DNA from: Bacilli bacterium
GTDB lineage: Bacteria > Bacillota_I > Bacilli_A > ML615J-28 > CAG-313
DNA length: 64,000 nucleotides
Direction: 5' to 3'
Assembly: GCA_045536365.1 (NCBI GenBank)
Contig: JAZSNL010000020.1
Location: 96,767-160,766, forward strand
The notes under the pieces were generated by a model that worked only from the letters and a program-made list of their open reading frames with translations, did not search any database and had not been told where the DNA came from. This document shows, one piece after another, positions 410-53,369 of this stretch. The position numbers and the translations under genes are program-made. Every line of letters begins with the position of its first letter. Position 1 is the first letter of the stretch.

Positions 410-1690
410 ATGAAGTTAAAAAAGAATCATAGTAAAGAATATTTAAAATATTGGCATAATAATGAAGAAATTAATATTCCAAGATATCATTTTAATAAAA
501 ATGATATTCGTGGTGTATGGGTTTCAAATGTTGCAAATATAGATACTCCTAGGGGTTTACCTATTGATGAATATCAAGCGTATTTAAAAGATATGGTTGC
601 AAATATTGCGAGTTATAATTTTAATACAATTATCTTCCAAGTAAGACCTTGTAGTGATGCGTATTATCCTTCAAAACTAAATCCATGGTCTCGTTTTATA
701 ACTGGTGAAGAAGGAAAAGATCCTGGATTTGATGTGTTACAATTTGTCATTGATGAAGCTAAAAAATATAATATTAGAGTACATGCGTGGATGAATCCTT
801 ACCGTGTTGCGCAAGTAAGTTTAGAAAAAATGGAAATGACAAAAGAACAATATTTAGAAACTTTACATGAATTAAATTTTGCAAGAAGACATCCAGAACA
901 TACTATTTTAGATGGTGCTGGTAAGGTAATTCTTTCCCCATCTCACCCAGAAGTTATTGAATTTGTAACAGAAACAATAATGGAAGTAGTGGATAACTAT
1001 GATGTTGAAGGTGTTCATATAGATGACTATTTCTATCCTTACGCAAAGATTCCTGAAGAAGCCGAACAAGAAGATTATTTAAAATATCGTGATTTTGAAG
1101 AACAATCATTTGATGATTTTAGAAGAAGCAATGTTAATAAAATGATTAAAAGCATTCATGATGCTATGAAAAAATCGTTTGACAAAAATAATAGAAAAGT
1201 TGACTTTGGTATCAGCCCTTTCGCAATCTATCGTACACATAGTTCAATAGTAGAAGGTGGTTGGGATAAAGGATCTTATCATTCTGCAGGTGCTTTACAA
1301 TGTTATAGTGAGTTATATTCTGATATTTACTTATGGATGAAAGAAGGATGGATTGATTATGTTGTTCCTCAAGTATATTTCCCATTCAGTAGAAAAGATG
1401 TAACTTATCATGACTTAGTATGGTGGTGGAATAATATTTGTGAAGAAACTAAAACTAAACTTTATATTGGTATGGGTATATATCAAATGGGTTCTAAAAA
1501 TGCGGAAGGTGAATTACATCCAGCATGGGATAATCCATTAGAAATTCAAAATCAATTAAAGTTTAATTGTCAATTTGAAAATGTTAGTGGAGTTATTTTC
1601 TTCACTTATAAAGATTTTGTAAAAGGTCAAAATGAAATTAAGAATGAGGCTTTAGATACTGTTAAAAAGTTGTTTAAAGCTAATAAATAA
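410..1690 (+). CDS. Glycoside hydrolase-like family 10 protein (GHL10/DUF187; YddW/DigH/YngK-like), no signal peptide
   Basis: RGVWV, FQVRP.SDAYYPS...PWS, GFDVL, HAWMNPYR, GVHIDDYFYP, FGISPF and GWIDYVVPQVY motifs. Confidence 0.85.
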   Translation: MKLKKNHSKEYLKYWHNNEEINIPRYHFNKNDIRGVWVSNVANIDTPRGLPIDEYQAYLKDMVANIASYNFNTIIFQVRPCSDAYYPSKLNPWSRFITGEEGKDPGFDVLQFVIDEAKKYNIRVHAWMNPYRVAQVSLEKMEMTKEQYLETLHELNFARRHPEHTILDGAGKVILSPSHPEVIEFVTETIMEVVDNYDVEGVHIDDYFYPYAKIPEEAEQEDYLKYRDFEEQSFDDFRRSNVNKMIKSIHDAMKKSFDKNNRKVDFGISPFAIYRTHSSIVEGGWDKGSYHSAGALQCYSELYSDIYLWMKEGWIDYVVPQVYFPFSRKDVTYHDLVWWWNNICEETKTKLYIGMGIYQMGSKNAEGELHPAWDNPLEIQNQLKFNCQFENVSGVIFFTYKDFVKGQNEIKNEALDTVKKLFKANK

Positions 1691-1700
1691 TTAAAAAAAT

Positions 1701-1746
1701 AAGAACAATATGACTAAAATAATTTTAGTTTATATTGTTCTTTTTT
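1701..1746 (+). terminator. Intrinsic terminator
   Basis: AAGAACAATATGACTAAAAT / ATTTTAGTTTATATTGTTCTT imperfect stem followed by a T run. Confidence 0.7.
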
Positions 1747-1785
1747 CTTTTTCTTCTTAAAATTAAATTTTAACTAGTGTTTCAC

Positions 1786-1814
1786 TTGAATAAAAACGTT
1801 TTCTTTGGTATAAT
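1786..1814 (+). promoter_or_regulatory. SigA promoter of the GH20/ABC operon, with a cre/LacI-like site in the spacer
   Basis: TTGAAT(1786)-17 bp-TATAAT(1809) with TGn extension; TAAAAACGTTTTCT at 1791-1804. Confidence 0.7.
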
Positions 1815-1874
1815 AAGTAAAGTAGTATGGGGTTTTTTCTAAACTTAAGAAAACTCGCGAAAGGAGGCCTTAAA

Positions 1875-3701
1875 ATGTATATTTTTCCTAAACCAAAGTT
1901 TGTAGAACAGTATGATAAAATATTTGATACAACAATAGAAAAAGTATCATTAGGGTCTTTTTCTTATAACCTTTTAAGAGAATTAGAAAGTATTTTTAAA
2001 GGTAAGCTTCAAAATGTTAATGAACCTGGTATAAAGACAATTTCTTTTGTCAATAACCTAATGGTTGAACAACAGGGTTATTTATTATTGATGAAGGATG
2101 AACAAATTATTATTGAGGCTTCTACTGATGTCGGTGCTTATTATGCGGTGCAGACATTGAAACAAATATTTAAATCTTCCCCTGTTAATTGTGTTAAGAT
2201 TTATGATTATCCGGATTTGGAAATCAGGGGTATTATGTTAGATATAAGTAGAAATAAAGTTCCTTTAGTTGATACGATAAAACAATTGATAGATGTATTT
2301 AGTAGTTTGAAAATTAATCATTTGGAGCTTTATATTGAAGGGTTTGCGTTAGAGTATAAAAAATATCAAGATATTATTCCACATAAGAATCATCTTAAAC
2401 AAAGTGAATATATTGAAATTGAGAACTACGCAAATGAACGATATATAGATTTAGTACCTAATCAAAATGGATTTGGACATATGGAAGAGTGGCTCGCGTT
2501 AGATGAATTTAAAGATTTAGCTGAGTGTCCGGATGGATTTACTATTTGGGGTAGTCACCGACCGCCTACAACGCTTAATCCTCTTGATGAAAGATCGACT
2601 GAATTAGTTAAGAGTTTGTATGATGAGTTACTTCCAATAAGTACTTCAAAGTATTTCCATATGAACTTTGATGAGCCTTATGAATTAGGCCATGGAAAAA
2701 GTAAAGAATTATGTGATGAATTAAGTAAAGAAGATGTATATATTAACTATTTCACTCCTCTTGCAAGTTATGTGAAGAGTTTCCATAAAACACCGATGTT
2801 GTGGGGAGATGTATTGATTCACAATAAAGATGCGATTTATAAACTGCCTCATGATGTAATATTTGTTGATTGGGGATATCATAAAGCTTATAATTTTGAA
2901 GAACATGCGAAGATGTTAAATAGTTTAGGAATAAGTTATCTTCTTGCTCCAGGTACTTCGACATGGTCTAATTTTACATGTCGATATGAAGATATGTATA
3001 CAACGATTCAAAATAGTGCAGAGGCTGCTAAACAATATAATGGTCTTGGAATATTAACAACTGATTGGGGAGATATAGGTCACTTACAATATTTACCTTT
3101 CAGTATGCCGGGCTTCATTTTAGGGGCTTGTTGCAGTTGGGGATCGATGAATGATGAAGAGTTAAAAATATGTTTAGGTAATCTGTTAGGAAGCTCAGAT
3201 TTAGCGAGTATAATTTATAATCTGTCTCAATATACAAGCCTTGAAGGCGAATATAGAGATTACGGTAGCAGGTTGTTCTCTAGTATTTTATGGGCAGAAC
3301 ATGTTATACGAGAAAAACAAGGATTAGATGTTTATTTTAAAAAAATACAAAATAATATTTTAGAGAAAAAAGCGGTTGAAGATATTAGTAAATTGTTTAA
3401 TGAATCTAAAGAAAAATTGAAGAAGTTGTATAATAATACAATTTGTCAAGAGTTGTCTAATACGATATTTATATTAGAAACTTTACTAGAATTAAATATT
3501 TTCTTTGGTGAGTATTTAAACAATCAATATGATGAACATAAACTAGTTAAAATATCTAAAAAATTAGATCAATATGCTCAAACTCATTATGGACTTTGGT
3601 GTGAGCGTAATTTAGAAGAAGGATACTTTATCAGTATTCAAAAAATTAAAAAAGTTCAAAGAATCTTAGAAATGATACAAATAAAGGAGAAAAGTGTATG
3701 A
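1875..3701 (+). CDS. GH20-family beta-N-acetylhexosaminidase-like protein, no signal peptide
   Basis: GH20b N-domain (GAYYAVQTLKQ), RGIMLDISR, FGHM and catalytic HMNFDEPY. Start moved to ATG 1875 after the AAGGAGG RBS. Confidence 0.8.
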   Translation: MYIFPKPKFVEQYDKIFDTTIEKVSLGSFSYNLLRELESIFKGKLQNVNEPGIKTISFVNNLMVEQQGYLLLMKDEQIIIEASTDVGAYYAVQTLKQIFKSSPVNCVKIYDYPDLEIRGIMLDISRNKVPLVDTIKQLIDVFSSLKINHLELYIEGFALEYKKYQDIIPHKNHLKQSEYIEIENYANERYIDLVPNQNGFGHMEEWLALDEFKDLAECPDGFTIWGSHRPPTTLNPLDERSTELVKSLYDELLPISTSKYFHMNFDEPYELGHGKSKELCDELSKEDVYINYFTPLASYVKSFHKTPMLWGDVLIHNKDAIYKLPHDVIFVDWGYHKAYNFEEHAKMLNSLGISYLLAPGTSTWSNFTCRYEDMYTTIQNSAEAAKQYNGLGILTTDWGDIGHLQYLPFSMPGFILGACCSWGSMNDEELKICLGNLLGSSDLASIIYNLSQYTSLEGEYRDYGSRLFSSILWAEHVIREKQGLDVYFKKIQNNILEKKAVEDISKLFNESKEKLKKLYNNTICQELSNTIFILETLLELNIFFGEYLNNQYDEHKLVKISKKLDQYAQTHYGLWCERNLEEGYFISIQKIKKVQRILEMIQIKEKSV

Positions 3702-6700
3702 GAAAAATTAAGAAGCCCTTTATAGCCTTAATAGTTCTAGTAATTACTTGTTTAGTTGTTGGAACTATAGGGGATCAAATCAAGGCATCTGATGAACCAG
3801 GTTTCACGGCTGGGGATATTTCATCTTATGTTGATAATCCTTATGATGACTATAAAGCAGAAAAACAAGAATATCATCAGACTAAATATGGGGACAAAAC
3901 AGCGTATCCTCAAGTTAATGATATTGTAATTAATGCATATGAGTATTATGGATTTGGTTATACTAGTGAAATGGATGAAAATGGATATCAAAGTGTTAAA
4001 GTTGTAGATAAAAATGGTAAAGAATTACAATACTATGAAAATATTGCAACAGAAGCTATTAATGATAAACTAGTTATCCAAGAAGATGATGGAACAATTA
4101 CTTGGAAAGTTGAAATTGCTGAACCTGGTTTTTATAACATGGTTTTCAGATACTATCCAATTGAAGGTTATAGTTCAGCTATCGAAAGAACTATTGCAAT
4201 AAATGGTGAAGTTCCTTTTAGTTCTGCATCTGCAGTAGCATTCTCAAGAATTTGGGCTGATGCTCCTACAGGATATACTTTAGATGAAAATGGTAATAAA
4301 GTATTTAAAACTGACCTTAGAGGAAATGCAACAAAACCTCAACAAGTAGAAAAGAGATATTTCTTAAATACTTATGCAAAAGATGCTATGGGTTATGAAA
4401 CAGAAAATTTCCAATTCTATTTAGATTCAGGTGTTAACTATATTACTTTCATTTCAATTAAAGAACCTATGTTATTAGATACTGTAACTATTAAACCTGT
4501 TAAAGCTGAAAAAACATATGCTCAATATTTACAAGAAATGGAAGCATTACACGGAAGTGTGGATTCATTCCAAGGTGGATTACAAGCAAGAGTTGAAGCA
4601 GAAAATACTTATACTAAATCTTCTCCTACTTTATATCCTACAACTGATAGATCTTCTTCAAAAACTTACCCTTATAGTTATGATAAAACAATGTTAAATA
4701 CTATTGGTGGTACATCATGGGCAACTGTTGGAGATTGGATTAGTTGGAATATTAATGTTCCTGAAGATGGTTATTATAATATTTCAATGAGAGTTAAACA
4801 AAACACAGTAAAAGGTATGTATTCTACTCGTGTTGTTTATATTGATGATGAAGTTTTATTTGATGAATTAAGTAGTGTTATTTTCCCTTATGATAATAAA
4901 TGGTATAATTATACATTAGGTAATGAACAAGGTGATTTCTTAATTTATTTAGAAAAAGGTGTTCATACATTAAAAATGGAAGTTTCACTTGGTGCTTATT
5001 CTTCATTAATTGAAAGAATTCAAAATGTTATTGATGATTTAAGTGCTATTTACCGTCAAATTATTTCTTATACTACTGTTAATCCAGATAGCAACCGTGA
5101 CTATCAATTAAATAAAAAGTTCCCTACAATGATGGATGAATTTGAAATGTATGCAAAAGAATTAAGAAGTATTTCAGCTGATATCACTGCTATTTCAGGA
5201 ACTAAGAATGATAAGACAGGGGTTATTGATGCAGTAGCAGTACAAATTGAAGACTTCTTAGACAGACCTGGAACAATTCCTGCTCGTTTAGGAACTTTCA
5301 GTACTAATATTTCTTCACTTGGTACAATCTTATTAGATTTAAGATCTGCACCATTACAATTCGACTATATTTCAGCTCATTCAGAAGATGTTGAATTACC
5401 TAAAGCAAATGCTAATTTCTTTAGAAAAATTTGGGATGGTATCGTATCATTCTTTGTATCTTTCTTTATTGATTATTCTGCAATCGGTGAAACTGTAGAA
5501 AGTACAGGTTCAAGAACAATTCAAGTATGGATGACTGCTGGTCGTGACCAAGCTAACGTTATTCGTAACTTAATAGATACAAACTTTAGAAAACAAAATC
5601 CAGAAGTTAATGTTGAATTAAAACTTACTGGTGCTGACGTATTATTAAAAGCAACTTTAGCAGGTATTGGACCTGAAGTTGCGTTAAACGTTGACTCTTC
5701 ACTTGCAGTTAACTATGGTTTAAGAAATGCCGTATTAGATTTAACTACAATTGATGAATTCTGGGATACAATTTATATTATCCCTGATGGATCTAATGAT
5801 TATAAAACTGCTCAAGCAGCTGGTTATGAAAATGTTTATATGGCTAGCTCAATGAGATTATATCAATTCTCTGATTATACAACAGATGCAATGTTTGATA
5901 GTACAAGTGTTTCATCTATTGAATATATGAAAGAAAATATTACAGGTGTTTATGCTTTACCTGAAAAACAAAATTTCTTAATGATGTTCGTACGTGATGA
6001 CGTATTAAAAGATTTAGGATTAGAAGATCAAATTCCTGAAACTTGGGATGATGTATTAGATTTAGTTGCTGAATTACAAACTGAACAATTACAATTCTAT
6101 ATTCCAGTTAATGATGCTGGTGCGACAGCTCTTAACCCAATCTTTGTAAGTCTTTTATATCAAAACGGTGGACAATTATATACAGATGATAACCGTGAAA
6201 CTGCATTATTATCAGAACCTGCAATGGATGCGTTCGAATATTGGACTGAGTTTTATACACTTTACTCATTCCCTAAATCAGCAAATTTCGTAAACCGTTT
6301 CCGTACTGGTGAAATGCCAATCGGTATCTCTTATTATGATTTATATAACACTTTAAGTGTTTCTGCTCCTGAATTAAAAGGTAAATGGTCATTCCATATT
6401 ATTCCTGGTACTGAAAGAGTAATCGTGGATGCACAAGGAAATGAAACTACTTATGTTGACCACACTTCAGTAACTTCTGGTTCTGCGTGTGTTATCTTAA
6501 AAGGTCCTGCATTAAAGAGTGAACAAGCTAAGATGGACTCTTGGGAATTCTTAAAATGGTGGACATCAGCTGATATTCAAGCTCAATTTGGTCGTGAAAT
6601 GGAAGGTATCTTAGGTGCTGCTGCTCGACACAATACAGCTAACGTTATCGCATTACAAGAATTATCTTGGACTTCTGGCGAATTAAGTATCTTAATGGAA

Positions 6701-6895
6701 CAATGGAAACAAACTCATGAAATGCCTAATATAGCAGGTAGTTATATGACAGGTCGTGAAATGGAAAATGCATTCCGTCAAGTAATTAATAACTTATATA
6801 ACGCTAGAGAAGTATTATACGAATACGCATTTAATATCAATAATGAAATTGATCGTAAACGTAAAGAATTTAACTTACCATTAAAAGGAGAATAG
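3698..6895 (+). CDS. Very large carbohydrate ABC solute-binding protein with N-terminal CBM-like beta-sandwich domains
   Basis: Signal peptide; two CBM6/35-like segments (W.V.IAEPGFYN; VEAE...WNINVPEDGYYNI); C-terminal SBP fold (IPETWDD, FRTGEMPIGI, WEFLKWW). Confidence 0.8.
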   Translation: MRKIKKPFIALIVLVITCLVVGTIGDQIKASDEPGFTAGDISSYVDNPYDDYKAEKQEYHQTKYGDKTAYPQVNDIVINAYEYYGFGYTSEMDENGYQSVKVVDKNGKELQYYENIATEAINDKLVIQEDDGTITWKVEIAEPGFYNMVFRYYPIEGYSSAIERTIAINGEVPFSSASAVAFSRIWADAPTGYTLDENGNKVFKTDLRGNATKPQQVEKRYFLNTYAKDAMGYETENFQFYLDSGVNYITFISIKEPMLLDTVTIKPVKAEKTYAQYLQEMEALHGSVDSFQGGLQARVEAENTYTKSSPTLYPTTDRSSSKTYPYSYDKTMLNTIGGTSWATVGDWISWNINVPEDGYYNISMRVKQNTVKGMYSTRVVYIDDEVLFDELSSVIFPYDNKWYNYTLGNEQGDFLIYLEKGVHTLKMEVSLGAYSSLIERIQNVIDDLSAIYRQIISYTTVNPDSNRDYQLNKKFPTMMDEFEMYAKELRSISADITAISGTKNDKTGVIDAVAVQIEDFLDRPGTIPARLGTFSTNISSLGTILLDLRSAPLQFDYISAHSEDVELPKANANFFRKIWDGIVSFFVSFFIDYSAIGETVESTGSRTIQVWMTAGRDQANVIRNLIDTNFRKQNPEVNVELKLTGADVLLKATLAGIGPEVALNVDSSLAVNYGLRNAVLDLTTIDEFWDTIYIIPDGSNDYKTAQAAGYENVYMASSMRLYQFSDYTTDAMFDSTSVSSIEYMKENITGVYALPEKQNFLMMFVRDDVLKDLGLEDQIPETWDDVLDLVAELQTEQLQFYIPVNDAGATALNPIFVSLLYQNGGQLYTDDNRETALLSEPAMDAFEYWTEFYTLYSFPKSANFVNRFRTGEMPIGISYYDLYNTLSVSAPELKGKWSFHIIPGTERVIVDAQGNETTYVDHTSVTSGSACVILKGPALKSEQAKMDSWEFLKWWTSADIQAQFGREMEGILGAAARHNTANVIALQELSWTSGELSILMEQWKQTHEMPNIAGSYMTGREMENAFRQVINNLYNAREVLYEYAFNINNEIDRKRKEFNLPLKGE

Positions 6896-6904
6896 GAGGT
6901 AAAT

Positions 6905-9335: not shown

Positions 9336-11126
9336 ATGAAAAGAACAAGAAAAATAATTATTACATGTTTAACATTAATTTTATTAGTTTTTAATGCATA
9401 TGGTAGCGTAAATGCTATGTCATATACATATGATTTCTGGAAAAATATTATCCCTTCTACTGAAGGTTTAGCTTATCGTGAAACTTATTATAGTAATACA
9501 ATCTTAGATGAATTTGGTGAAGAAACAAATCTTGTATTAGATACATTAACAGATTTCTCTGTTTATGAAGGTAACATTTATTTATTAGATAGTCGTAAAA
9601 CATATAATAAACAAATGTCATTTGCTGATTTAGCACCTGGTGCTACTACAGCAGTAGCCTCAGTTAGTTCATTAATTATACTTAACCAAAATTTCCAATT
9701 CGTTAAGGAATTAGATGAATTTGAAATGACTGATGCTGTAAAAGAAAAATTAGAAAAATATTATGGATTTACAACTCCATTAAATGAAATTACTTCTGCG
9801 CAATATACAGCACAAGAAGTTCCTGATAAAGCTCCTTATAGTGCTTCAAGTACTGATCCTAATAAAGCAGTATTAAGATTAGATGAAGCTCAAGGTGTTG
9901 AAGTTACAAGTGAAGGTATCTTTATTGCAGATACTGAAAACTCAAGAATTTTAAAATTAAACTCTGAATATGTATGTGTTGATGTTTATTTAACACCTGC
10001 TGATTCAGCATTCACTCAATATAATAAAGAAGGTATTGAGTTCGAAGAAGATGAAACTGCAATTCCATTTAAACCATTAAAAGTTACTGCAGTATCTGAT
10101 GGTAGTATTTATTGTATTAGTAGAGATATTTATGAAGGTATTATCGAGTTCAATTTAGACACTGAATTTAATCGTTTCTTAGGTACAAATACAGTAGTTG
10201 CTAACCCATTAAAGAAATTCTGGGCTAAATTATTCTCTGAAGCTCAACTTTCTACAATGGAACTTGACTTACCTCCAATGTTTACAAATATTTGTGCAGA
10301 TGAAAAAGGATTTATTTATGCAACATCTAAGCCAGATGCTGATGATACAGCAGCTTCTAAAGTTGTAAAAGCAATCAACAAATCTGGTAAAGACGTTATG
10401 AGAAGAAATGGATATGTTTTACCTGACGGTGACGTTGTATATCTATCAACTTCAAATGTTAAAGATGCCGTAACAGGTGCTTCAAGTATTATTGACGTTG
10501 CAATTAGTTCAACTGGTAACTTTACAATTGCAGACGCAAATAGAGGTCGTATTTTTACTTATGATATCGAAGGTAACTTATTATACATTGCTGGTGAACA
10601 ACCTGGTGGTCAAGGTAACTCTGGATCTGGTGGTTTATCAAATAGTATCTTAAATCCTTCAGCAATTAATTATTTATATCGTACAAATGAAGATGGTTCT
10701 TCAGAAGAATTATTATTAGTATTAGACCAAAAATCTTCAAGTATCATTGTTTATGAAACTACAGAATTTGGTGAAACAGTTAATACAGCTACTTATTTAT
10801 ATCAAAATGGTATGATTGAAGAAGCTGAACAATATTGGCGTAAAGCAGAAAAAATGAATACTAACTATGAACTTGCTTATTTAGGTATTGGTAAGAGTTT
10901 ACTTCGTCAAGGTCGTTATGAAGAAGCTATGGAATACTTTAAGAAAGCTCATAATGGTACTTATTATTCTAAAGCATTTAGTAATTATCGTGACAATGTA
11001 TTAAAGGAAAATTTCAGTTGGATAATGACAGTTGCCATTATCGGTGTAGTAGGTATCTTTGTATATAAATACATTAAGTATGTTAATAAAAAACGTAATA
11101 GTGTTCCACAAGGAGGCGATGAATAA
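9336..11126 (+). CDS. Secreted NHL-repeat beta-propeller + TPR protein with C-terminal TM anchor
   Basis: Signal peptide; IFIADTENSRI and IADANRGRIFTYD repeats; TPR-like AYLGIGKSLLRQGRYEEAMEYF; C-terminal TM. Confidence 0.8.
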   Translation: MKRTRKIIITCLTLILLVFNAYGSVNAMSYTYDFWKNIIPSTEGLAYRETYYSNTILDEFGEETNLVLDTLTDFSVYEGNIYLLDSRKTYNKQMSFADLAPGATTAVASVSSLIILNQNFQFVKELDEFEMTDAVKEKLEKYYGFTTPLNEITSAQYTAQEVPDKAPYSASSTDPNKAVLRLDEAQGVEVTSEGIFIADTENSRILKLNSEYVCVDVYLTPADSAFTQYNKEGIEFEEDETAIPFKPLKVTAVSDGSIYCISRDIYEGIIEFNLDTEFNRFLGTNTVVANPLKKFWAKLFSEAQLSTMELDLPPMFTNICADEKGFIYATSKPDADDTAASKVVKAINKSGKDVMRRNGYVLPDGDVVYLSTSNVKDAVTGASSIIDVAISSTGNFTIADANRGRIFTYDIEGNLLYIAGEQPGGQGNSGSGGLSNSILNPSAINYLYRTNEDGSSEELLLVLDQKSSSIIVYETTEFGETVNTATYLYQNGMIEEAEQYWRKAEKMNTNYELAYLGIGKSLLRQGRYEEAMEYFKKAHNGTYYSKAFSNYRDNVLKENFSWIMTVAIIGVVGIFVYKYIKYVNKKRNSVPQGGDE

Positions 11127-11965
11127 TGACAGTATTTATAGTTGCAGCAATTGTAATAGCGGCATTATTAATCGCTATGATTGTTACAACATCAAAAGTA
11201 GGTGCTAGAGAATTAACTCCAAGCTCTGCTTTGGGTGTTGAAACTCGCGAGTATCCACTTGATGAAACTCGTAAAATTATTGATAAAAATTATGATGGTT
11301 ATGATGAAAAACAAAAAGCTCGCAGAGCTAAAGTAAAAGAGTTTTTCTCTCACACATTTAAATTCCCATTATATTTAATGAGCCATCCTATTCAAGGATT
11401 TAATGAATTTAAAACTGAGAAAAAGGCTAGAATGTCAGTTGCAATATTTATTCTAATCTTATTTGTATTAGAGGAAATAGTCGCTTACAAATATTTAGGT
11501 CCTGTTATCAATACAAATAACCCTCAAAAGTTTAACAGTTTAGAAATTTTAGCATTCAGTGTTGGTCCAGTTGTTTTATTAACAGTATCTAACTGGTCTG
11601 TTACAACACTAATGGATGGTAAAGGTAAAATGAAGGAAATCTTCATGTTATGTTGTTATTCATTATTCCCAGTAGTTATGCTTGGTTTCTTACACATTGC
11701 GTTAAGTAATGTTATGATTGAAGATGAAAAACAAATTATCTTAGTATTAAAAATTATATCTTGGGTATTAACTGCTTATATGGCTTTCATGGGCTTAGTA
11801 GTAATCCATGAATATAGTATTATTAAAACAATTGGTTCAATTATTTTGACAGTAGTTGCGGCTTGCGTAATTATGTTCGTATGTCTATTAATATTTGACT
11901 TAGTAGAACAAATTTACGGTTTCATCTATTCTTTATATGATGAAATTTCCGCAAGATACTTCTAG
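11126..11965 (+). CDS. Yip1-domain membrane protein
   Basis: HPIQGF, NWSVTTLMDGKG and CYSLFP motifs; multiple TMs; usual position in this cluster type. Confidence 0.75.
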   Translation: MTVFIVAAIVIAALLIAMIVTTSKVGARELTPSSALGVETREYPLDETRKIIDKNYDGYDEKQKARRAKVKEFFSHTFKFPLYLMSHPIQGFNEFKTEKKARMSVAIFILILFVLEEIVAYKYLGPVINTNNPQKFNSLEILAFSVGPVVLLTVSNWSVTTLMDGKGKMKEIFMLCCYSLFPVVMLGFLHIALSNVMIEDEKQIILVLKIISWVLTAYMAFMGLVVIHEYSIIKTIGSIILTVVAACVIMFVCLLIFDLVEQIYGFIYSLYDEISARYF

Positions 11966-22969: not shown

Positions 22970-22997
22970 AAAACTCACCTTTGTAGGTGAGTTTTTT
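22970..22997 (+). terminator. Intrinsic terminator ending the ~21-kb GH20-nagB operon
   Basis: AAAACTCACCT-TTGT-AGGTGAGTTTT plus T tract. Confidence 0.85.
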
Positions 22998-24140: not shown

Positions 24141-24151
24141 CGAGGTAGTTT

Positions 24152-38301: not shown

Positions 38302-38328
38302 AACAGATTATGCTGTTTTACTTTTTTT
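38293..38328 (+). terminator. Intrinsic terminator
   Basis: AAAAAGTAAAACAG-ATTATG-CTGTTTTACTTTTT. Confidence 0.75.
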
Positions 38329-39230: not shown

Positions 39231-39231
39231 T

Positions 39232-41170: not shown

Positions 41171-41179
41171 GAGGTTATT

Positions 41180-43574: not shown

Positions 43575-43575
43575 T

Positions 43576-45871: not shown

Positions 45872-45875
45872 TAGT

Positions 45876-47468: not shown

Positions 47469-47497
47469 ACTTTATTCAATTATGAATAAAGTCTTTT
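47467..47497 (+). terminator. Intrinsic terminator
   Basis: AGACTTTATTCA-ATTA-TGAATAAAGTCT plus TTT. Confidence 0.7.
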
Positions 47498-47568
47498 ACT
47501 TTTTTACTCATATTTTAACTAACTAATTGTAAAATATGGTATAATAAATAAAAGAAAGGGTGATAAAT

Positions 47569-48390
47569 ATGGAACAACAAGAAAAAAAGATGAAGTCAAA
47601 GTTGTTTATATTTTTTGAATGGGTATTTAATTTATTAGTATCTAATGTTTTAATATTATTACCTATTGTGCCTACAGTTGCTTATTTTAGGTTTTTTGTT
47701 AATGAAGAAAATGCAAGTAGTCCTGTTAATGTTGCGATTTTAGCAATTACTTTAGCTTTATTTGCTGTTTCATTATTCCCTAATATTACCGCATGTACTA
47801 AAACAATGAAAGATGGTATTGAAACTGATATTATATTTAAAACTCATTTTAGAAATTTAAAAGAGTGTTTTAAAAAATCTTTTGTGTTGGGAATAATTTT
47901 CTTTATTATTCTATCTATTATTATTTTTGGATTATTATTCTATATTTTCCAAGATTTTAATTCTATTCACATTGATCAGACTTTATTTGAAAAAATAGGG
48001 GAAAAGGCATCTTCAGCTGGTGTAGTAGTGATGTTTGTTGCGATGATATTTTTATTATTAATGGCTTCAAATGTGCCTTTAATTATTATTAATTTTAAGA
48101 AGTTAACAGTAGGAGAAATAATTAGATCTGCATTTTATCTTGCTTTTAGATATTTCTTAACTACGTTTATATTATTTGTTTTATTAGTATTTTCAGTTGG
48201 TATTGGTATTTTATGTTTTTTAAGTCAAATGGCAATACTGTTATTATTATGGATGATGATAGGTATCTCTTTACCTATTATGTTAGGAACAAAAATTACA
48301 AAACCAATTTTTTATATGTTAGAGAAAAAACAATTTGAAAGAATTATGCATTATGATGAGGAGGATGATTTAGATGATCTTGAATTCTAG
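47569..48390 (+). CDS. YesL/DUF624-like membrane protein heading the MurNAc operon
   Basis: Multi-TM; similar layout to 17747-18439 (N..IL..IVP, GISLP). ATG 47569 follows AGAAAGGG. Confidence 0.6.
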   Translation: MEQQEKKMKSKLFIFFEWVFNLLVSNVLILLPIVPTVAYFRFFVNEENASSPVNVAILAITLALFAVSLFPNITACTKTMKDGIETDIIFKTHFRNLKECFKKSFVLGIIFFIILSIIIFGLLFYIFQDFNSIHIDQTLFEKIGEKASSAGVVVMFVAMIFLLLMASNVPLIIINFKKLTVGEIIRSAFYLAFRYFLTTFILFVLLVFSVGIGILCFLSQMAILLLLWMMIGISLPIMLGTKITKPIFYMLEKKQFERIMHYDEEDDLDDLEF

Positions 48391-49534
48391 AAAAACAATA
48401 TTAGGTATTGAAAGAGTAGATGAATATAAAGAAATTTTTGAAAATAAAAGAATAGGATTAATTACTAATCCTACTGGTATTACAGGAGATTTTGTTTCTT
48501 CTATTGATGTTTTACTTAAAAAAACAAACTTAGTTGCATTATTTTCACCAGAACATGGTGTTCGAGCAAGTCTTCAAGCAGGACAACAATTAAGTACTTA
48601 TACTGATGAAGAAACTGGTTTACCAGTATATAGTTTATATGGTAAATCTAAGAAACCATCTAAAGAAATGATGGATGAACTTGATATTATATCAATTGAT
48701 ATTCAAGATAATGGTTCTAGATATTATACTTTTATTTACACAATGGCTTATTGTATGATGGCTTGTGCTGAATATGATAAAGAGTTTGTTGTATTTGATC
48801 GTCCTAATCCAATTAATGGTTTAAAGGTAGAAGGTAATATTTTAGATGTTGAAAAGTATCGTTCATTTGTTGGATATTATCCAATTGTTCAACGCCATGG
48901 TTTAACAATGGGTGAACTTGCTTTATTATTTAATAAAGAGTTTGGTATTAATTGTAAATTACATGTTATTCCGATGAAAAATTGGGAAAGAAAAATGGAC
49001 TTTGAAGAAACTGGTTTACCTTGGGTAATCCCTACGCCTAATCTTCCTAATATTTCTACTGCTTATGTATATAATGCAACATGTATTTTTGAAGGTACCA
49101 ATGTTTCAGAAGGAAGAGGAACTACAACACCATTTGAACTAGTGGGTGCTCCTTGGATAAAATCAGAAAGATTAGCTGAAGAGTTGAACTCATATAATTT
49201 AGAAGGAGTATACTTTAGACCTCAATACTATACTCCAACTTTCTCAAAATACGCAGGCGAATTATGTGGTGGGGTTTTTGTGCATATAACTAATCGTGAA
49301 AAGTTTAATAGTGTAAAAACTAGTTGGGTAATGTTACATCATATTAGAACAAAATATGCGGATAATTTCAAAATTAGTAAACCTTATGTTGAAGGTCGTC
49401 CTAGTTTATTTGAATTTGAAGCTGGTTGTGATGATGTTATTTTTAATAATACTTCACTTGAAGAACAACTAAATAAGGTAGAACAAGATTCTAAAAAGTT
49501 TGAAGAAATTAGAAAACCTTATTTAATTTACTAG
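48374..49534 (+). CDS. namZ: Exo-beta-N-acetylmuramidase NamZ (DUF1343), no signal peptide
   Basis: GLITNPTG, LFSPEHG, DIQD.G.RYYT, DRPNP, RHGLTMGELA and SEGRGTT.PFE. Confidence 0.9.
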   Translation: MILNSRKTILGIERVDEYKEIFENKRIGLITNPTGITGDFVSSIDVLLKKTNLVALFSPEHGVRASLQAGQQLSTYTDEETGLPVYSLYGKSKKPSKEMMDELDIISIDIQDNGSRYYTFIYTMAYCMMACAEYDKEFVVFDRPNPINGLKVEGNILDVEKYRSFVGYYPIVQRHGLTMGELALLFNKEFGINCKLHVIPMKNWERKMDFEETGLPWVIPTPNLPNISTAYVYNATCIFEGTNVSEGRGTTTPFELVGAPWIKSERLAEELNSYNLEGVYFRPQYYTPTFSKYAGELCGGVFVHITNREKFNSVKTSWVMLHHIRTKYADNFKISKPYVEGRPSLFEFEAGCDDVIFNNTSLEEQLNKVEQDSKKFEEIRKPYLIY

Positions 49535-49542
49535 GTGAGTAT

Positions 49543-50580
49543 ATGTATAAATACGGAGTTTCTATATTTACAGGTTTATCTGATTACACAAGAGAGGAAA
49601 ATCTTAAGTATTTAAAAACTGCAAGTGAAATGGGATGTGAAGTTATTTTTTCATCTGCACATATTAATGAAGCAGAAAAAGAGATTAACGAATTAGAAGA
49701 ATTAGTTACTTTAGCTTCATCTTATGGTATGAAAGTTAGTTTAGATGTATCTAAACCCATGATGAGTAATTTTAATGTTCCTAAAGGATTATATGCGTTA
49801 AGATTAGATTATGGTTTTTCATTAGATGAAATTGTTGAAATGTCTAATAATGCAGAGTTTTTTGTAGAATTAAATGTTTCTGTTTTAAATAAAAATGATA
49901 TTAATGTTTTAATTGAAAAAGGATTAAATATTTCAAGAACCAGAGCAAGCTTTAATTATTATCCTAAGCTTTACACAGGACATGATATACAGACATGTCA
50001 AGATATTATAAATGAATGTCATAAATATAATATTCCTGTACTTGGTTTTCTTCCATCAAAAGTAGGACATCGTCCTCCTTTATATGAAGGATTACCAACA
50101 ATTGAAAATCATCGTTATATTGATCTTGATTTAGCGATTGAAGAAATGAAAGCAATAGGATTTGATGAAATTGCATTTGGTGATGCGTATGCGTCAACTT
50201 TAGAAATTAAAAAGTTAAAAGAACATCAAAATGAAGAATTATATTTATATATGAAAAAGGAACAAAATGTTCCTTTAGAATGTTTAGATATTTTAGAGGG
50301 TATATATCGTATTAGACCTGATTTAAATTCATACATGATTAGAGTTACTTCAAAAAGAGGTAAATATGATATAAAAGAATTTAATACAGTTGAAAGATGT
50401 TATTTAGATGTTACTATAGATAATCTAAATTTTAAAAGATATAAAGGTGAAATTTGTATTGTATTAAAAGATTTACCGAAAGATGAAAGAGTTAATGTTA
50501 TTGGTAAATTATATACAACAGAATTCTTATTAGAGAGCGTTAAAAATAAAAAAAGTTTTAGAATAATTCCCATAGAATAA
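49543..50580 (+). CDS. mupG: MupG-family (DUF871) 6-phospho-N-acetylmuramidase
   Basis: GVSIF, LRLDYGF, NYYPK.YTG, EGLPTIENHR, DN..F.RY.GE and RVNVIG. Confidence 0.85.
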   Translation: MYKYGVSIFTGLSDYTREENLKYLKTASEMGCEVIFSSAHINEAEKEINELEELVTLASSYGMKVSLDVSKPMMSNFNVPKGLYALRLDYGFSLDEIVEMSNNAEFFVELNVSVLNKNDINVLIEKGLNISRTRASFNYYPKLYTGHDIQTCQDIINECHKYNIPVLGFLPSKVGHRPPLYEGLPTIENHRYIDLDLAIEEMKAIGFDEIAFGDAYASTLEIKKLKEHQNEELYLYMKKEQNVPLECLDILEGIYRIRPDLNSYMIRVTSKRGKYDIKEFNTVERCYLDVTIDNLNFKRYKGEICIVLKDLPKDERVNVIGKLYTTEFLLESVKNKKSFRIIPIE

Positions 50581-50591
50581 AGGAGAACAAC

Positions 50592-51710
50592 ATGAGATAT
50601 GCGGTAGGGTTAATGAGCGGAACTTCTCTTGATGGAGTAGATGCGAGTTTAGTATTGATCACAGATGATAGAAAATATCAATTAGTTGAATATATTTTAT
50701 ATCCTTATACGGAAGAGATTAAAAATAAAATATTAGATGCTTCTTCAATTGAAACATCTAATGTTCAAAAAATTTGTAGTTTGAATTTTGAAATAAGCCA
50801 TATTCATGTAGAAGCTATTAAGAAACTTATGGAAAAAGCTAATTTTGATATTAAAGATGTTGACTTTATTGCATATCATGGGCAAACTATTTGGCATAAT
50901 CCTAACAGAACAGAAAAGTATGTTTCTAGTACTTTACAAATAGGAGATGCGAGTGTTATAAGTTATGCTTTTAATAAGATGGTAATAAATAATTTCCGTA
51001 CGGCAGATGTTGCTGCAGGAGGAGAAGGAGCTCCGCTTGTCCCTTATGCGATTTTTAAATTATATCAAAAGGATGATTTATCTGTTGCTTTCCAAAATAT
51101 TGGAGGAATTGGTAATGTAACTTATTTACCAAAAAGTGGTAAAGTAGATGATGTTATTGCGTTTGATACGGGACCTGGTAACATGCTTATTGATGGTGCG
51201 ATGAAAAAGTTATTTAATTTACCTTATGATGATGGTGGGGAAATTGCTTTTAAAGGAAATATTAATATTGATGTTTTAAATTCTTTATTATGTGATGAAT
51301 ATTTTATTCAAATACCTCCTAAAAGTACAGGACGTGAAAAATATAATGAAGAATATTTAAATAGAGTTATTGACAAAGTATTGTTAAAAGGAACGAAAGA
51401 AGATGTTATTACAACCCTTTCTGCTTTTACTGCTGAGTCAATAATTAGTCAAATTAGCTTATATTTACCAGAAATTGATAAATTAATTGTTTCTGGTGGT
51501 GGTGCTCATAATGAATATATTATGAATTATTTACGTGAAAAAACGAATTATATTGTTGAAAAAGCTGAATATATGGATGCGTTAGAATCATTATGTTTTG
51601 TTGTTTTAGGTGATGCGACAATAAATAATGAACCTTCAAACATTCCAAATGTTACAAACGCAAGAGAAAAAGTTATATTAGGTAGTATCACTCTACCTCC
51701 AAGGAGATAA
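50592..51710 (+). CDS. anmK: Anhydro-N-acetylmuramic acid kinase
   Basis: GLMSGTSLDGVD, HGQTIWH, GGEGAPL, NIGGIGN, FDTGPGN and PPKSTGRE. Confidence 0.95.
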   Translation: MRYAVGLMSGTSLDGVDASLVLITDDRKYQLVEYILYPYTEEIKNKILDASSIETSNVQKICSLNFEISHIHVEAIKKLMEKANFDIKDVDFIAYHGQTIWHNPNRTEKYVSSTLQIGDASVISYAFNKMVINNFRTADVAAGGEGAPLVPYAIFKLYQKDDLSVAFQNIGGIGNVTYLPKSGKVDDVIAFDTGPGNMLIDGAMKKLFNLPYDDGGEIAFKGNINIDVLNSLLCDEYFIQIPPKSTGREKYNEEYLNRVIDKVLLKGTKEDVITTLSAFTAESIISQISLYLPEIDKLIVSGGGAHNEYIMNYLREKTNYIVEKAEYMDALESLCFVVLGDATINNEPSNIPNVTNAREKVILGSITLPPRR

Positions 51711-51712
51711 TT

Positions 51713-52618
51713 ATGGACTTAAATAAAATATCAACGGAATTAAGAAATCCTAATACAATGGATATAGATATCGTATCTACGAAAGAAATTTTAGTTAAAA
51801 TTAATAATGAAGATAAAAAAGTAGCTTATGTTATTGAAGAAAAATTAGATCAAATTACTGTAGTTGTAGATAAAATAGTAGAAGCTTTTAATAAAGGTGG
51901 AAGACTAATTTATATGGGTGCTGGAACAAGTGGAAGACTTGGTGTATTAGATGCGGTTGAGTGCCCTCCTACTTACGGAACACCTAAAGAAATGGTAATT
52001 GGTTTAATGGCAGGCGGAATCGATGCGTTAGAGTTTGCGGTGGAAGGTGCAGAAGATAGCGTTGAGCTTGCGGTTGAAGATTTAACAAGGGTTAATGTTA
52101 ATGAAAATGATATTGTTGTTGGTATTGCTGCAAGCGGAAGAACTCCTTATGTAGTAGGTGGTATTAAATTTGCTAAGGAAAAAGGAGCAATGACTTCATG
52201 TATTACAACTAGTTTAAATAGTATTCTTGCCCAAACTGTTGATTATCCAATTGAAGTTGTTACTGGAGCTGAGGCTATTACTGGTTCTACAAGAATGAAA
52301 TCTGGTACTGCTCAAAAGCTTGTTTGTAATATGTTAACTACTGCTAGCATGATTAAAATGGGTAAAGTGTATGAAAATTTAATGATTGATATGCAACCTA
52401 CTAATGAAAAATTAGTTGCAAGAGCAGAAAAAATGTTAATGGAAGTAACTGGATTAGACCGTGAAGGTGCTAAAGAATACATTAAAAAATATGGAAATGT
52501 TAAAAGATCAATGTTTGCGTATTTAACAGGTATTGAAAATATTAGTGTAATCGATGAATATTTAGCTAAAACAAAAGGAAATATTCGTTTAGCATTAAAA
52601 CTTGCTAAGGAGGAGTAA
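51713..52618 (+). CDS. murQ: N-acetylmuramic acid 6-phosphate etherase
   Basis: TE.RNP, GAGTSGRLGVLDA.ECPPT, EGAED and TGSTRMKSGTAQK. Confidence 0.96.
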   Translation: MDLNKISTELRNPNTMDIDIVSTKEILVKINNEDKKVAYVIEEKLDQITVVVDKIVEAFNKGGRLIYMGAGTSGRLGVLDAVECPPTYGTPKEMVIGLMAGGIDALEFAVEGAEDSVELAVEDLTRVNVNENDIVVGIAASGRTPYVVGGIKFAKEKGAMTSCITTSLNSILAQTVDYPIEVVTGAEAITGSTRMKSGTAQKLVCNMLTTASMIKMGKVYENLMIDMQPTNEKLVARAEKMLMEVTGLDREGAKEYIKKYGNVKRSMFAYLTGIENISVIDEYLAKTKGNIRLALKLAKEE

Positions 52619-52622
52619 TTTA

Positions 52623-53369
52623 ATGATAGTTAGACAAATGGAGTTAGTTTCTACTCATAAACATAAGAAATTTACACTTCGTGGATTGTGGACATTACCT
52701 GATGGAATTAGTGAAAGTTTAATTGTTATGTTCCATGGATACACAGGACATAAGAATGAAAATGGATTTTTATTCCGTCATTTATCTAGATTATTAGCTG
52801 AAAAAGGTATTTCAACAATAAGATATGATTTTATGGGTAGTGGTGATAGTGATGGTGAATTTAGTGATATGACTTTCTTTACTGAACTTGAAGATGCAAG
52901 AAATATTATTAATCAAGCTTATATGTTAAATAATTATAAGAATGTTATTGTTCTTGGTTTTTCAATGGGCGGTGCTATTGCAACTAGAGTATCTTTAGAA
53001 TTGCAAGATAAAATAGATAAATTAATTTTATTATCACCTGCCGGATCTATTAATAAAATTGCCGCAAGATCTTTTGAAGGTAATGATTTAGAAGTTTTAG
53101 ATTTAGGTGGATATTATTTACATCGTGATTTCTATGATACTTTAGTAGGATATGACATGTATAAAGATATTGAAACTTTTAAAAAACCTGTTGTAATTAT
53201 TCATGGCGAAGAAGATCAAGCTGTAGATATTTCTTATGGTAAAAAGTATGATGATTTATATCCTCATAGTGTTATGTATACTATTCCTAATTCTCCACAT
53301 TGTTATACAAAGGTTGAGTATCGTGAATTAGTTGATGAATATATATTAAGATTTTTAGGAAAAAAATAA
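52623..53369 (+). CDS. Alpha/beta-fold serine hydrolase (esterase-like)
   Basis: HGYTG, DFMGSGDSDG, nucleophile GFSMG, HGEEDQAV and His in PH. Start moved to ATG 52623 after AGGAG. Confidence 0.88.
   Translation: MIVRQMELVSTHKHKKFTLRGLWTLPDGISESLIVMFHGYTGHKNENGFLFRHLSRLLAEKGISTIRYDFMGSGDSDGEFSDMTFFTELEDARNIINQAYMLNNYKNVIVLGFSMGGAIATRVSLELQDKIDKLILLSPAGSINKIAARSFEGNDLEVLDLGGYYLHRDFYDTLVGYDMYKDIETFKKPVVIIHGEEDQAVDISYGKKYDDLYPHSVMYTIPNSPHCYTKVEYRELVDEYILRFLGKK

Follow-up and report, generated by a model that had tools for sequence, protein, structure and literature searches.

What use does a bacterium that builds a cell wall make of a large set of genes for taking peptidoglycan apart: does it recycle its own wall, or does it live on the walls of others? 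The question is raised by a stretch of 64,000 nucleotides (hereafter, the window) from a Bacilli bacterium (GTDB lineage Bacilli_A; ML615J-28; CAG-313), positions 96,767 to 160,766 of contig JAZSNL010000020.1 in assembly GCA_045536365.1 (G000:C8:96767-160766, where G000 is the host genome). The genome measures 1.71 Mb in 36 contigs, is 95.66% complete and has about 29% G+C. A preliminary description, made from the letters of the window alone, saw in it a window-wide pathway for scavenging cell walls through ATP-binding cassette (ABC) import of oligomers, and favored foraging over self-recycling. It missed the operon at 38373-42100, which encodes homologues of N-acetylhexosamine 1-kinase (NahK), a truncated GlmU, UppP and PopT, and which would be the anabolic end of the pathway. 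I will argue that the window probably carries a lineage-typical locus for the uptake and dismantling of peptidoglycan-type glycan, joined by this operon, which would turn N-acetylglucosamine (GlcNAc) into UDP-GlcNAc for the cell's own wall.

Genes were identified by Pfam and NCBIfam profile searches, with PDB sequence comparison for selected proteins, and a set of 14 genomes served as controls for the profile searches. Topology was judged by a simple hydropathy scan for a hydrophobic N-terminus, not by a dedicated signal-peptide predictor. The comparison set consists of 41 genomes (the host, 24 of the same family and 16 of the same order), which are kin and not independent of each other. A set of 66 metagenomic loci carrying DUF5696 was taken from the best 80 of 294 matches and, having been found through two peptide patterns, is biased to this subfamily; the 31 loci of at least 15 kb fall into 22 distinct clusters at 90% identity. 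Nearly all genes of the window lie on the plus strand, including every gene of the catabolic clusters and of the operon described below.

Wall synthesis and the supply of amino sugars

The preliminary description thought that the locus would be striking in a host without wall synthesis. A wall-less host was rejected, however, as the genome encodes the wall pathway from MurA onward: a MurA-like protein (344 bits, cut-off 392.7), MurB, adjoined by a MurG-like protein (194.5 bits, cut-off 250), five Mur_ligase_M proteins, MraY (258 bits, over its cut-off) and two penicillin-binding protein (PBP) transpeptidases. One of the ligases, of 423 aa, lies just upstream of the window; it was tried as Mpl and rejected in that role, being a better match to MurC (274 vs 89 bits, with a MurC cut-off of 335). 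The wall-less twist is thus false for this genome, though it does hold for relatives in which the locus is also present.

The first steps toward that pathway are another matter. GlmS was found in 14 of 14 controls, but in the host genome its profile matched only the SIS domain of MurQ (27.6 bits against 418), and tblastn with the GlmS of a relative (G002) found nothing there. The best match for GlmM was a 572-aa phosphohexomutase of the PGM family, which was rejected as GlmM on its score (92.7 bits against 447.6) and whose gene sits between a ROK kinase and PGI. No GlmU acetyltransferase domain was found in the genome. The absence of a phosphotransferase system (PTS), noticed at first in the window, extends to the whole 95.66%-complete genome, where neither PF02378 (EIIC) nor PF00381 (HPr) found a match. 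The absence of nagA and of an amidase gene is, in turn, confined to the window: the genome encodes two NagA proteins elsewhere (on C20, 357 bits, and C6, 325 bits) and two Amidase_3 proteins. With GlmS, GlmM and the GlmU acetyltransferase missing, a net import of amino sugar would be needed, and the host is most likely auxotrophic for amino sugars, with a wall made from sugar that it scavenges.

The operon missed at first is a candidate for the way in. Its four genes, with gaps of at most 9 bp, encode a PopT-like (PF04018) membrane protein of the polyprenyl-phosphate translocase family (38373..39230), the NahK homologue (39232..40365), an UppP/BacA undecaprenyl-diphosphate phosphatase (40340..41170) and the truncated GlmU (41180..42100). 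The kinase matches the Bifidobacterium NahK structures 4OCU, 4WH1 and 4OCJ over its full length (residues 4-353, E 4e-71), and the stretches H-N-D-T-K-L-N-N and D-L-D are identical in the alignment. The truncated GlmU comprises only the GlcNAc-1-phosphate (GlcNAc-1-P) uridylyltransferase part, covering profile positions 2-302 of 452 (positions 2-300 of TIGR01173, with 285 bits and a cut-off of 366.85; E 1.6e-57 against GlmU in the PDB). The C-terminal left-handed beta-helix acetyltransferase domain is absent from its open reading frame (ORF), and the next gene begins 55 bp on. NahK converts GlcNAc to GlcNAc-1-P (PMC6264712), and E. coli GlmU cut at residue 331 has served as a uridylyltransferase-only enzyme (PMC4358021). 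Together the two proteins may lead from GlcNAc through GlcNAc-1-P to UDP-GlcNAc, the entry of the retained wall pathway, while UppP and the PopT-like protein place two functions of lipid-carrier recycling beside them.

The kinase is a full-length homologue of the NahK of the bifidobacterial galacto-N-biose/lacto-N-biose (GNB/LNB) pathway. A role in that pathway was rejected, since the GNB/LNB phosphorylase (GH112, PF09508), with which NahK is usually partnered, was over its cut-off in none of the 41 genomes, though the 14 control genomes offered no positive control for this search. The partners differ as well: truncated GlmU, UppP and the PopT-like protein point to the supply of wall precursors rather than to the catabolism of milk or mucin sugars. 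The named records with the closest NahK are metagenome-assembled genomes labelled 'Acholeplasmatales bacterium' and 'uncultured Bacilli bacterium', at 57% identity, and in both a nucleotidyltransferase gene follows. No natural NahK/truncated-GlmU route was found in the literature, in a search largely without subscription journals and supplements, and papers on NahK with GlmU, auxotrophy, peptidoglycan or salvage yielded only engineered or bifidobacterial uses.

Natural GlcNAc auxotrophy has been shown in Capnocytophaga canimorsus (PMC4358021) and Akkermansia muciniphila (PMC5902328). C. canimorsus has no GlmM or GlmU acetyltransferase, has a monofunctional uridylyltransferase and makes peptidoglycan from foraged GlcNAc (PMC4358021), and the same combination of two absences and one presence was found in the host's 95.66%-complete genome. 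The former organism, however, belongs to the Bacteroidota and draws on host N-glycans and mucin through Sus-like polysaccharide utilization loci, whereas the present one is a member of the Bacilli with ABC import, a GlmU-derived truncated enzyme in an operon with NahK and a food that appears to be bacterial wall. A. muciniphila likewise has no GlmS, has a catabolic NagB and requires GlcNAc for peptidoglycan (PMC5902328); it differs in taking its amino sugar from mucin, and no NahK/truncated-GlmU operon is described in the available part of that paper. Tannerella forsythia, a N-acetylmuramic acid (MurNAc) auxotroph, reportedly also depends on the wall material of its neighbours, and the Pseudomonas AmgK-MurU shortcut is said to bypass de novo synthesis in a similar way, by pairing an APH-family anomeric sugar kinase with a nucleotidyltransferase. 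Here, by contrast, NahK and GlmU, rather than AmgK and MurU, are the nearest relatives of the kinase and the transferase, and because the host has MurB and a MurA-like protein, the missing step would be UDP-GlcNAc and not UDP-MurNAc. Recycling enzymes and amino-sugar auxotrophy are, then, both known; what the present genomes would add is the anabolic bypass and the reading of auxotrophy as a trait of the order.

The comparison set bears on both. GlmS is over its cut-off in one of the 41 genomes (G002), and that genome has no match to NahK, NamZ or MurQ. A NahK homologue is found in 35 and a truncated GlmU in 28, at most 120 bp apart in 8 genomes and at most 2.4 kb apart in 12; full-length GlmU occurs in one. 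MraY is present in 31 of the genomes, a PBP transpeptidase in 32 and a MurG-like protein, below the curated cut-off in every case, in 32. Where there is MraY or a PBP (32 genomes), GlmS accompanies it once and NahK 29 times, and the two genomes with neither are 70% and 80% complete. MurQ is over its cut-off in 36 genomes and NamZ is found in the same 36, DUF5696 in 40 of the 41 (and in none of the 14 controls), and HPr in 8. Nine genomes, 92-98% complete, have no MraY, PBP or MurG-like protein; NamZ and MurQ persist in eight of these and DUF5696 in all nine. A wall-less cell cannot use NamZ and MurQ to recycle its own wall, and these genomes therefore give the strongest support for foraging, support that comes from relatives and not from the host itself.

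Two observations on single genomes may be added. G009, without MraY, PBP or MurG-like protein, nonetheless has the sole full-length GlmU (497.6 bits), and keeps NahK, NamZ and MurQ. In three genomes of one genus of the sister family (G025:C27, G032:C40 and G035:C5), a MurG-like gene lies 2-6 kb 3' of the NahK/truncated-GlmU pair.

The mixture of walled and wall-less genomes resembles the picture of RF39-type lineages given by two surveys. One predicts that RF39, ML615J-28 and some RFN20 lack precursor steps and need scavenged muropeptides (PMC10868615); glmS, glmU and glmM occur 0 times in it. The other reports that two of four RF39/RFN20 genomes have no genes for UDP-GlcNAc synthesis (PMC7301438). 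The locus is a candidate answer to the holes that these surveys found in the synthesis of peptidoglycan precursors by gut Bacilli of the RF39/RFN20/ML615J-28 type.

The catabolic clusters and their counterparts elsewhere

The genes that the preliminary description had listed on the catabolic side (GHL10, GH20, nagZ, nagB, tandem GNAT, namZ, mupG, anmK and murQ) were confirmed by Pfam and NCBIfam profiles, each in its place. They form cluster A, from GHL10 to nagB, with a GNAT unit beyond it, and cluster B, the MurNAc unit.

Cluster A opens with a glycosidase-like GHL10 protein of 426 aa (410..1690, Pfam 222 bits) without signal peptide and hence taken as cytoplasmic. Its catalytic domain is present by Pfam and by PDB comparison, residues 16-406 aligning to the catalytic domain of Clostridioides difficile Cwp19 (PDB 5OQ2, E 1.5e-70). 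Positions 3..407 hold the C-terminal end of a 725-aa paralogue, whose full ORF (G000:C8:94996-97173) starts upstream of the window, scores 152.9 bits with GHL10 and has a hydrophobic N-terminal anchor; it is a candidate extracellular peptidoglycan-cutting enzyme. E. coli DigH, which cuts denuded glycan, is a further GHL10 protein for comparison. The GHL10 domain of Cwp19 yields 1,6-anhydro-muropeptides, besides products with peptide-free MurNAc (PMC6016235). Cwp19 is, however, a secreted S-layer autolysin with CWB2 repeats, whereas one of the GHL10 proteins here is cytoplasmic, the other anchored, and both stand at a catabolic locus. Directly upstream of the window, in the company of the 725-aa protein, are a PIG-L deacetylase, an M19 dipeptidase and a beta-lactamase-family (PBP4B-like) hydrolase that is 51% identical to its counterpart in a relative (G034). 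The genome has a third GHL10 protein on C22, a third GH3 protein on C31 and a second amino-sugar cluster (C6:76970-81600) with NagA, GH3 and a DUF4838/GH67N-like protein.

A unit of 13 genes (1827-22965, all gaps at most 19 bp) follows, beginning with a cytoplasmic GH20 beta-N-acetylhexosaminidase (1827..3701). Next is a giant membrane-anchored sugar-binding protein of 1065 aa (3698..6895), with SBP_bac_8 at residues 700-965 and a sub-threshold hint of CBM6/35 in its N-terminal extension. The preliminary description had counted two sugar-binding proteins: this one stands, but the other is an SBP_bac_5 protein of the Opp type and lies outside 410-53369; nor does the N-terminal part of the DUF5696 protein show any binding-protein signal in a permissive Pfam scan. 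Its four permeases were borne out as two CUT1-type pairs with BPD_transp_1 domains, at 6905-8296 and 8298-9323 and at 15538-16668 and 16652-17728; a MalK-type ATPase, the one at good score, is encoded outside the window (C26). Between the pairs lie genes for a surface protein with NHL and TPR repeats, a signal peptide and a C-terminal anchor (9336..11126), a Yip1-family multi-pass membrane protein (11126..11965) and a membrane-anchored DUF5696 protein of 1182 aa (11980..15528, Pfam 442 bits). The second pair is followed by a 7-TM (transmembrane) protein with a weak, below-cut-off match to DUF624/YesL (17747..18439, 18.4 bits) and a surface-anchored protein with a NAGPA (phosphodiester glycosidase) domain (18459..20681). 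The unit ends with a cytoplasmic GH3 exo-beta-N-acetylglucosaminidase like NagZ (20683..22239; 279 bits for the Pfam GH3 N-domain, 205.3 bits with NF003740 against a cut-off of 207) and the glucosamine-6-phosphate deaminase NagB (22243..22965; TIGR00502, 299.7 bits against 236.9). I will call the giant binding protein, the two permease pairs and the NHL/TPR, Yip1, DUF5696 and YesL-like proteins the eight-gene Firmicute cassette.

At some remove stands a tandem-GNAT glucosamine/glucosaminide N-acetyltransferase of the GlmA type (27846..28814). It aligns full-length (residues 14-320, E 4.8e-47) to the tandem-GNAT structure 5KF1, which is GlmA (PMC10936415). The next gene encodes a 605-aa lipoprotein with an Ig-like domain (28807..30624), whose counterpart in relatives is a Big_2 protein encoded after the GNAT. 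GlmA is said to act on glucosamine (GlcN)-MurNAc from de-N-acetylated walls.

Cluster B (47560-53369, all gaps at most 11 bp) begins with a DUF624 membrane protein (47560..48390). NamZ, an exo-beta-N-acetylmuramidase (48374..49534), has the two-domain architecture of NamZ_N and NamZ_C (PF07075, 284 bits; PF20732, 163 bits) and no signal peptide; it lacks a hydrophobic N-terminus, and secretion, as in B. subtilis, marks the founding member rather than the family as a whole. It is followed by the 6-phospho-N-acetylmuramidase MupG (49543..50580; MupG_N 176 bits, MupG_C 79.8 bits), the anhydro-MurNAc kinase AnmK (50592..51710; NF007148, 426.9 bits against 387, and NF007142, 427.4 bits, just below the cut-off of 435), the MurNAc-6-phosphate etherase MurQ (51713..52618; TIGR00274, 343.9 bits against a cut-off of 302) and an alpha/beta-hydrolase (52602..53369), which comes after MurQ in the relatives G034 and G037 as well. 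NamZ has been found missing wherever MupG is present (PMC8054146); here they are neighbours, and the lineage breaks this pattern of exclusion. MupG's substrate, MurNAc-6P-GlcNAc, would not come from a MurP-type PTS, as neither EIIC nor HPr occurs in the genome. A metatranscriptomic run (X1) contains contigs, 93-95% identical, that bridge NamZ-MupG and AnmK-MurQ-hydrolase. As a sign of expression these are at most a weak hint, since contigs cannot show transcripts and DNA may have been carried over; the lack of X1 cover at 38404-42009, a stretch that the DNA-type runs X3 and X4 do cover, carries no weight.

In four relatives (G027, G034, G037 and G040) the clusters are one contiguous locus on one strand. 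Upstream are GH20, a giant sugar-binding protein, two permeases and a TPR-like protein, preceded by GHL10 and QueH; then come Yip1, DUF5696, two permeases, GH3, NagB, the tandem GNAT, an Ig-like surface protein, DUF624, NamZ, a second GH3, MupG, a BadF-type kinase, AnmK, MurQ and the alpha/beta-hydrolase. An LD-carboxypeptidase adjoins GHL10 in G034 and G040 and QueH in G037, and still further upstream G034 has genes for an M19 dipeptidase, for another tandem GNAT and for a beta-lactamase-family hydrolase whose best match, PBP4B, stays below its cut-off. The window's GNAT and 605-aa lipoprotein correspond to the GNAT and Ig-like protein of the relatives. Judged by gene order, clusters A and B descend from a single locus, which in the host is broken at about 23.0-27.8 and 30.7-47.5 kb by some 22 kb that hold mostly other genes. 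Neither the BadF-type kinase nor the LD-carboxypeptidase was found in the host genome by tblastn with the proteins of the relatives.

MupG is joined to its partners in several relatives: GH3-MupG fusions of 849 and 871 aa occur in G027 and G040, and a GH3-MupG-BadF-type kinase fusion of 1177 aa in G037 (the fusion ORFs are at L028:3501-7034, L025:14031-16580 and L029:438-3053). The fusions imply a cytoplasmic kinase route to MurNAc-6P-GlcNAc that has no need of a PTS. Other fusions and oddities touch the same locus. G027, a wall-less genome of 1.0 Mb, has a NamZ of 617 aa with six predicted N-terminal transmembrane segments, apparently a DUF624-NamZ fusion (L025:12185-14038), and in G028 and G039 the NamZ ORF spans 557-576 aa. 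QueH, an epoxyqueuosine reductase, is at or near GH20 in all four relatives with the contiguous locus (L033:9977-10618 and its counterparts in L034, L035 and L036), lying between GHL10 and GH20 in G034, and is not in the window.

The cassette recurs in the metagenomic loci. Among the 31 of at least 15 kb, homologues of the sugar-binding, NHL/TPR and Yip1 proteins accompany DUF5696 in 29, 31 and 31, and a homologue of the NAGPA protein in 14. Within 10 kb of DUF5696 the 22 distinct clusters have GH3 in 18, NagB in 14, NamZ in 11, MurQ in 8 and GlmA in 4; where GH3 is missing (four clusters), the downstream flank is short. The link of DUF5696 with amino-sugar and MurNAc enzymes is thus frequent and not universal. 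Its recurrence here, together with the contiguity in four relatives, argues that the clustering goes beyond chance.

DUF5696 itself was not found in the literature, again in a search largely without subscription journals and supplements. The family is large (3665 representatives at E no higher than 0.001), with 1-4 copies in each relative. A profile of 86 sequences found GH129 structures (5OPQ, E 3.8e-10, over three collinear and individually weak stretches; 5WZN, E 1.6e-4), and leads from an atlas were to GH101, GH129 and GH31 at 0.85-0.88, all below 0.9. DUF5696 would appear to be a remote, collinear relative of GH129. Families GH101, GH129 and GH31 cut alpha-linked sugars, and a role on other wall polymers or on non-bacterial glycans is therefore possible.

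Foraging and its alternatives

The closest known system is the B. subtilis operon murQ-murR-murP-amiE-nagZ-namZ, for peptidoglycan recycling and MurNAc (PMC8054146). There, as here, a NagZ-type GH3, NamZ and MurQ are encoded together, a beta-lactamase-family hydrolase is nearby, and GlcNAc, peptide and MurNAc would be removed stepwise from the ends. The differences lie in the place of the reactions: B. subtilis secretes NagZ, AmiE and NamZ and takes up monosaccharides through the PTS (MurP), whereas the present locus has ABC permeases, no PTS and enzymes without signal peptides. MupG and AnmK are added, and MurR was not seen. The hydropathy scan found no hydrophobic N-terminus in the 426-aa GHL10, GH20, GH3, NagB, NamZ, MupG, AnmK or MurQ. 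The binding, NHL/TPR, DUF5696, NAGPA and EEP-family proteins appeared anchored or lipidated, as did a 938-aa Ig-like protein, the 605-aa lipoprotein and a 1082-aa M6-like lipoprotein, and the 725-aa GHL10 has a hydrophobic N-terminus. Given ABC import, no PTS and such enzymes, oligomers would have to be dismantled inside the cell.

The course of events may be pictured as follows. Fragments of foreign walls would be captured and cut at the surface by the anchored GHL10, the tethered binding protein and the DUF5696, NAGPA and NHL/TPR proteins, and oligomers would enter, to judge from the protein families, through the two permease pairs powered by the MalK-type ATPase encoded elsewhere. The exo-lytic cascade that is extracellular in B. 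subtilis would then run in the cytoplasm. The cytoplasmic GHL10 would cut glycan and may leave 1,6-anhydro-MurNAc ends; stem peptides would fall to the PBP4B-like hydrolase and the M19 dipeptidase (with an LD-carboxypeptidase added in the relatives); GlmA would re-acetylate GlcN residues, GH3 and GH20 would remove GlcNAc and NamZ would remove MurNAc. AnmK and MurQ would convert anhydro-MurNAc to GlcNAc-6-P, which NagA and NagB would pass to glycolysis. Anhydro products of GHL10 would feed AnmK without a PTS or a MurNAc kinase, which matters here because the BadF-type kinase went unmatched. On the anabolic branch NahK would make GlcNAc-1-P and the truncated GlmU UDP-GlcNAc, while UppP and the PopT-like protein would recycle the lipid carrier. 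The PTS-independent, ABC-fed route for GlcNAc and MurNAc with cytoplasmic NagZ, NamZ, AnmK and MurQ, as first proposed, finds support in these comparisons, and peptidoglycan foraging by ABC import is likewise supported by comparison rather than by biochemistry.

Several points weigh against this account. Counts over 41 kindred genomes overstate the support they seem to give, and the genome, 95.66% complete in 36 contigs, has gaps that could hide a missing gene; for GlmS, GlmM and the GlmU acetyltransferase, their near-absence from the family and the whole order speaks against this. The matches to MurA, MurC and MurG all fall short of curated cut-offs, and the GH112 search that argued against a GNB/LNB pathway had no control to show that it could succeed. 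NahK is kept in 6 of the 9 wall-less relatives, so UDP-GlcNAc would serve more than peptidoglycan. The absence of a BadF-type kinase leaves the source of MupG's 6-phospho substrate unexplained, and likewise that of MurNAc-6-P from free MurNAc. Specificity is also at issue: no informative near relative of GH20 was found, the closest solved relative of the binding protein is a beta-1,2-glucan binder (E 5e-8), and the structural kin of DUF5696 (GH129 only) have alpha-GalNAc or anhydro-galactose rather than peptidoglycan as their substrate. Finally, terminator-like hairpins and some 22 kb given over mostly to other genes separate the parts of the locus, which may not be co-regulated.

These doubts about specificity lead to the thought that cluster A may be directed at some other glycan of GlcNAc or GalNAc (chitin, mucin or N-glycans, exopolysaccharide, teichoic-acid decorations), only the NamZ-MurQ unit being specific to peptidoglycan and the two being adjacent through a shared pool of amino sugars. 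DUF5696's remote kinship to the alpha-glycosidases of GH129 and the atlas leads would fit, as would a large family whose several copies suggest several substrates, NAGPA-type enzymes that act on GlcNAc phosphodiesters (according to Pfam), and a GH20 and a binding protein that give no specificity beyond the CBM6/35 hint; in 11 of the 22 distinct metagenomic loci NamZ is not within 10 kb. In the other 11, however, it is, and GH3 is in 18, even where the identity of DUF5696 has dropped to about 30%. The four relatives, moreover, have the cassette contiguous with NamZ, MupG, AnmK and MurQ and preceded by an LD-carboxypeptidase and a Cwp19-like GHL10, the locus includes an acetyltransferase of the GlmA type, reportedly active on de-N-acetylated muropeptides, and neither chitinase nor GH112 was seen in it (GH18 was not searched genome-wide). 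On balance I consider a different target for cluster A unlikely. Still less probable is it that the cell, like B. subtilis or E. coli, simply reclaims what its own wall sheds and depends in no special way on other bacteria. The host does make a wall, and NagZ, NamZ, AnmK and MurQ belong to the classical recycling repertoire (PMC8054146), yet recycling gives no net supply for growth to a cell without GlmS, GlmM and the GlmU acetyltransferase. Nor would it account for the eight of nine relatives that keep NamZ and MurQ without MraY, PBP or MurG, the nine of nine that keep the DUF5696 cassette, or the presence at the locus of several large surface proteins along with an anchored GHL10.

It may be, instead, that there is no auxotrophy at all. 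NagB, in an ammonia-rich gut, could run as an aminating enzyme, a GNAT could acetylate its product, the 572-aa mutase could make GlcNAc-1-P and the truncated GlmU could finish the task in the manner of eukaryotes, leaving NahK as auxiliary salvage. A reversal of NagB next to a GNAT is conceivable and counts against auxotrophy; the tandem GNAT is directly 3' of NagB in relatives, a mutase of the PGM family does exist, and the truncated GlmU needs only GlcNAc-1-P. But the GNAT is like GlmA, an acetyltransferase reportedly for glucosamine or glucosaminide and not GlcN-6-P, and the mutase, between a ROK kinase and PGI, is in a glucose context. A. muciniphila NagB cannot aminate physiologically, and that organism needs GlcNAc (PMC5902328). 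NahK is next to truncated GlmU in 8-12 genomes, while the sole genome with GlmS has no NahK match. A backwards NagB therefore has, in my estimation, very little chance of being the answer. Foraging remains the preferred account, and the preference over mere self-recycling expressed at the outset is sustained by the three missing functions, by the wall-less relatives that keep NamZ and MurQ and by the contiguous locus with its peptide-stem enzymes.

A bolder version may be put forward only tentatively, and I would not expect all of it to hold: that the whole order of small-genome gut Bacilli lives on the walls of its neighbours, wall-less members eating the imported glycan and walled members, having shed GlmS, GlmM and half of GlmU, making their own wall from scavenged GlcNAc with NahK and truncated GlmU, with the eight-gene cassette as the oligomer importer and DUF5696 as a new family of surface wall-glycan hydrolases. 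Even short of this, the locus would give a first functional context to a widespread and uncharacterized Firmicute cassette, and an instance of an all-cytoplasmic, PTS-free NagZ/NamZ cascade in which NamZ coexists with MupG, even fused to partners. It suggests a cheap hypothesis for bringing lineages with no cultured members into culture (supply GlcNAc, muropeptides or sacculi), and it speaks for cross-feeding on bacterial wall material in the gut.

Transcription units and neighbouring genes

That the pathway is window-wide was an overstatement in one respect. Clusters A and B are indeed one locus in relatives, but here other genes intervene, and with the terminator-like hairpins between them the region falls into several units, at least five, and not one. 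The hairpins lie directly after nagB (22970..22995, plus strand, 11 pairs and a T-run), after the gene of an ECF S component (24794-24832), after that of the 938-aa Ig-like protein (27810-27831), after an alanine symporter (38293-38326) and after a VanZ-like gene (47467-47494). No strong plus-strand hairpin was found within 1827-22965, and promoter-like matches were no commoner than in shuffled sequences. Among the intervening genes a two-component system, GDPD, the alanine symporter, a glycerol-3-phosphate oxidase/dehydrogenase trio and MntP have no evident link to the locus.

Some of the neighbours deserve mention in their own right. Between nagB and the 938-aa Ig-like gene is a unit of two genes (23070-24772), encoding a membrane-anchored EEP-family protein and the S component of an ECF transporter. 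The halves of the locus are split by the gene of the 1082-aa lipoprotein (30730-33978), whose metalloprotease domain of the M6 (immune-inhibitor-A-like) type scores 103 bits against a cut-off of 110.8. Flanking the NahK operon are the gene of a cytoplasmic GDPD (36170-36889) and the trio of glycerol-3-phosphate oxidase-like, Pyr_redox_2 and DUF1667 proteins (42156-45185), which suggest the use of glycerophosphodiesters, possibly the head groups of teichoic acids or lipids. Directly after the locus comes an Opp-type ABC system (55627-64000), with two enlarged permeases (one of 661 aa), two ATPases and the SBP_bac_5 protein, a lipoprotein of 925 aa with a Listeria-Bacteroides repeat (55627-58404); this system could import stem peptides or muropeptides.

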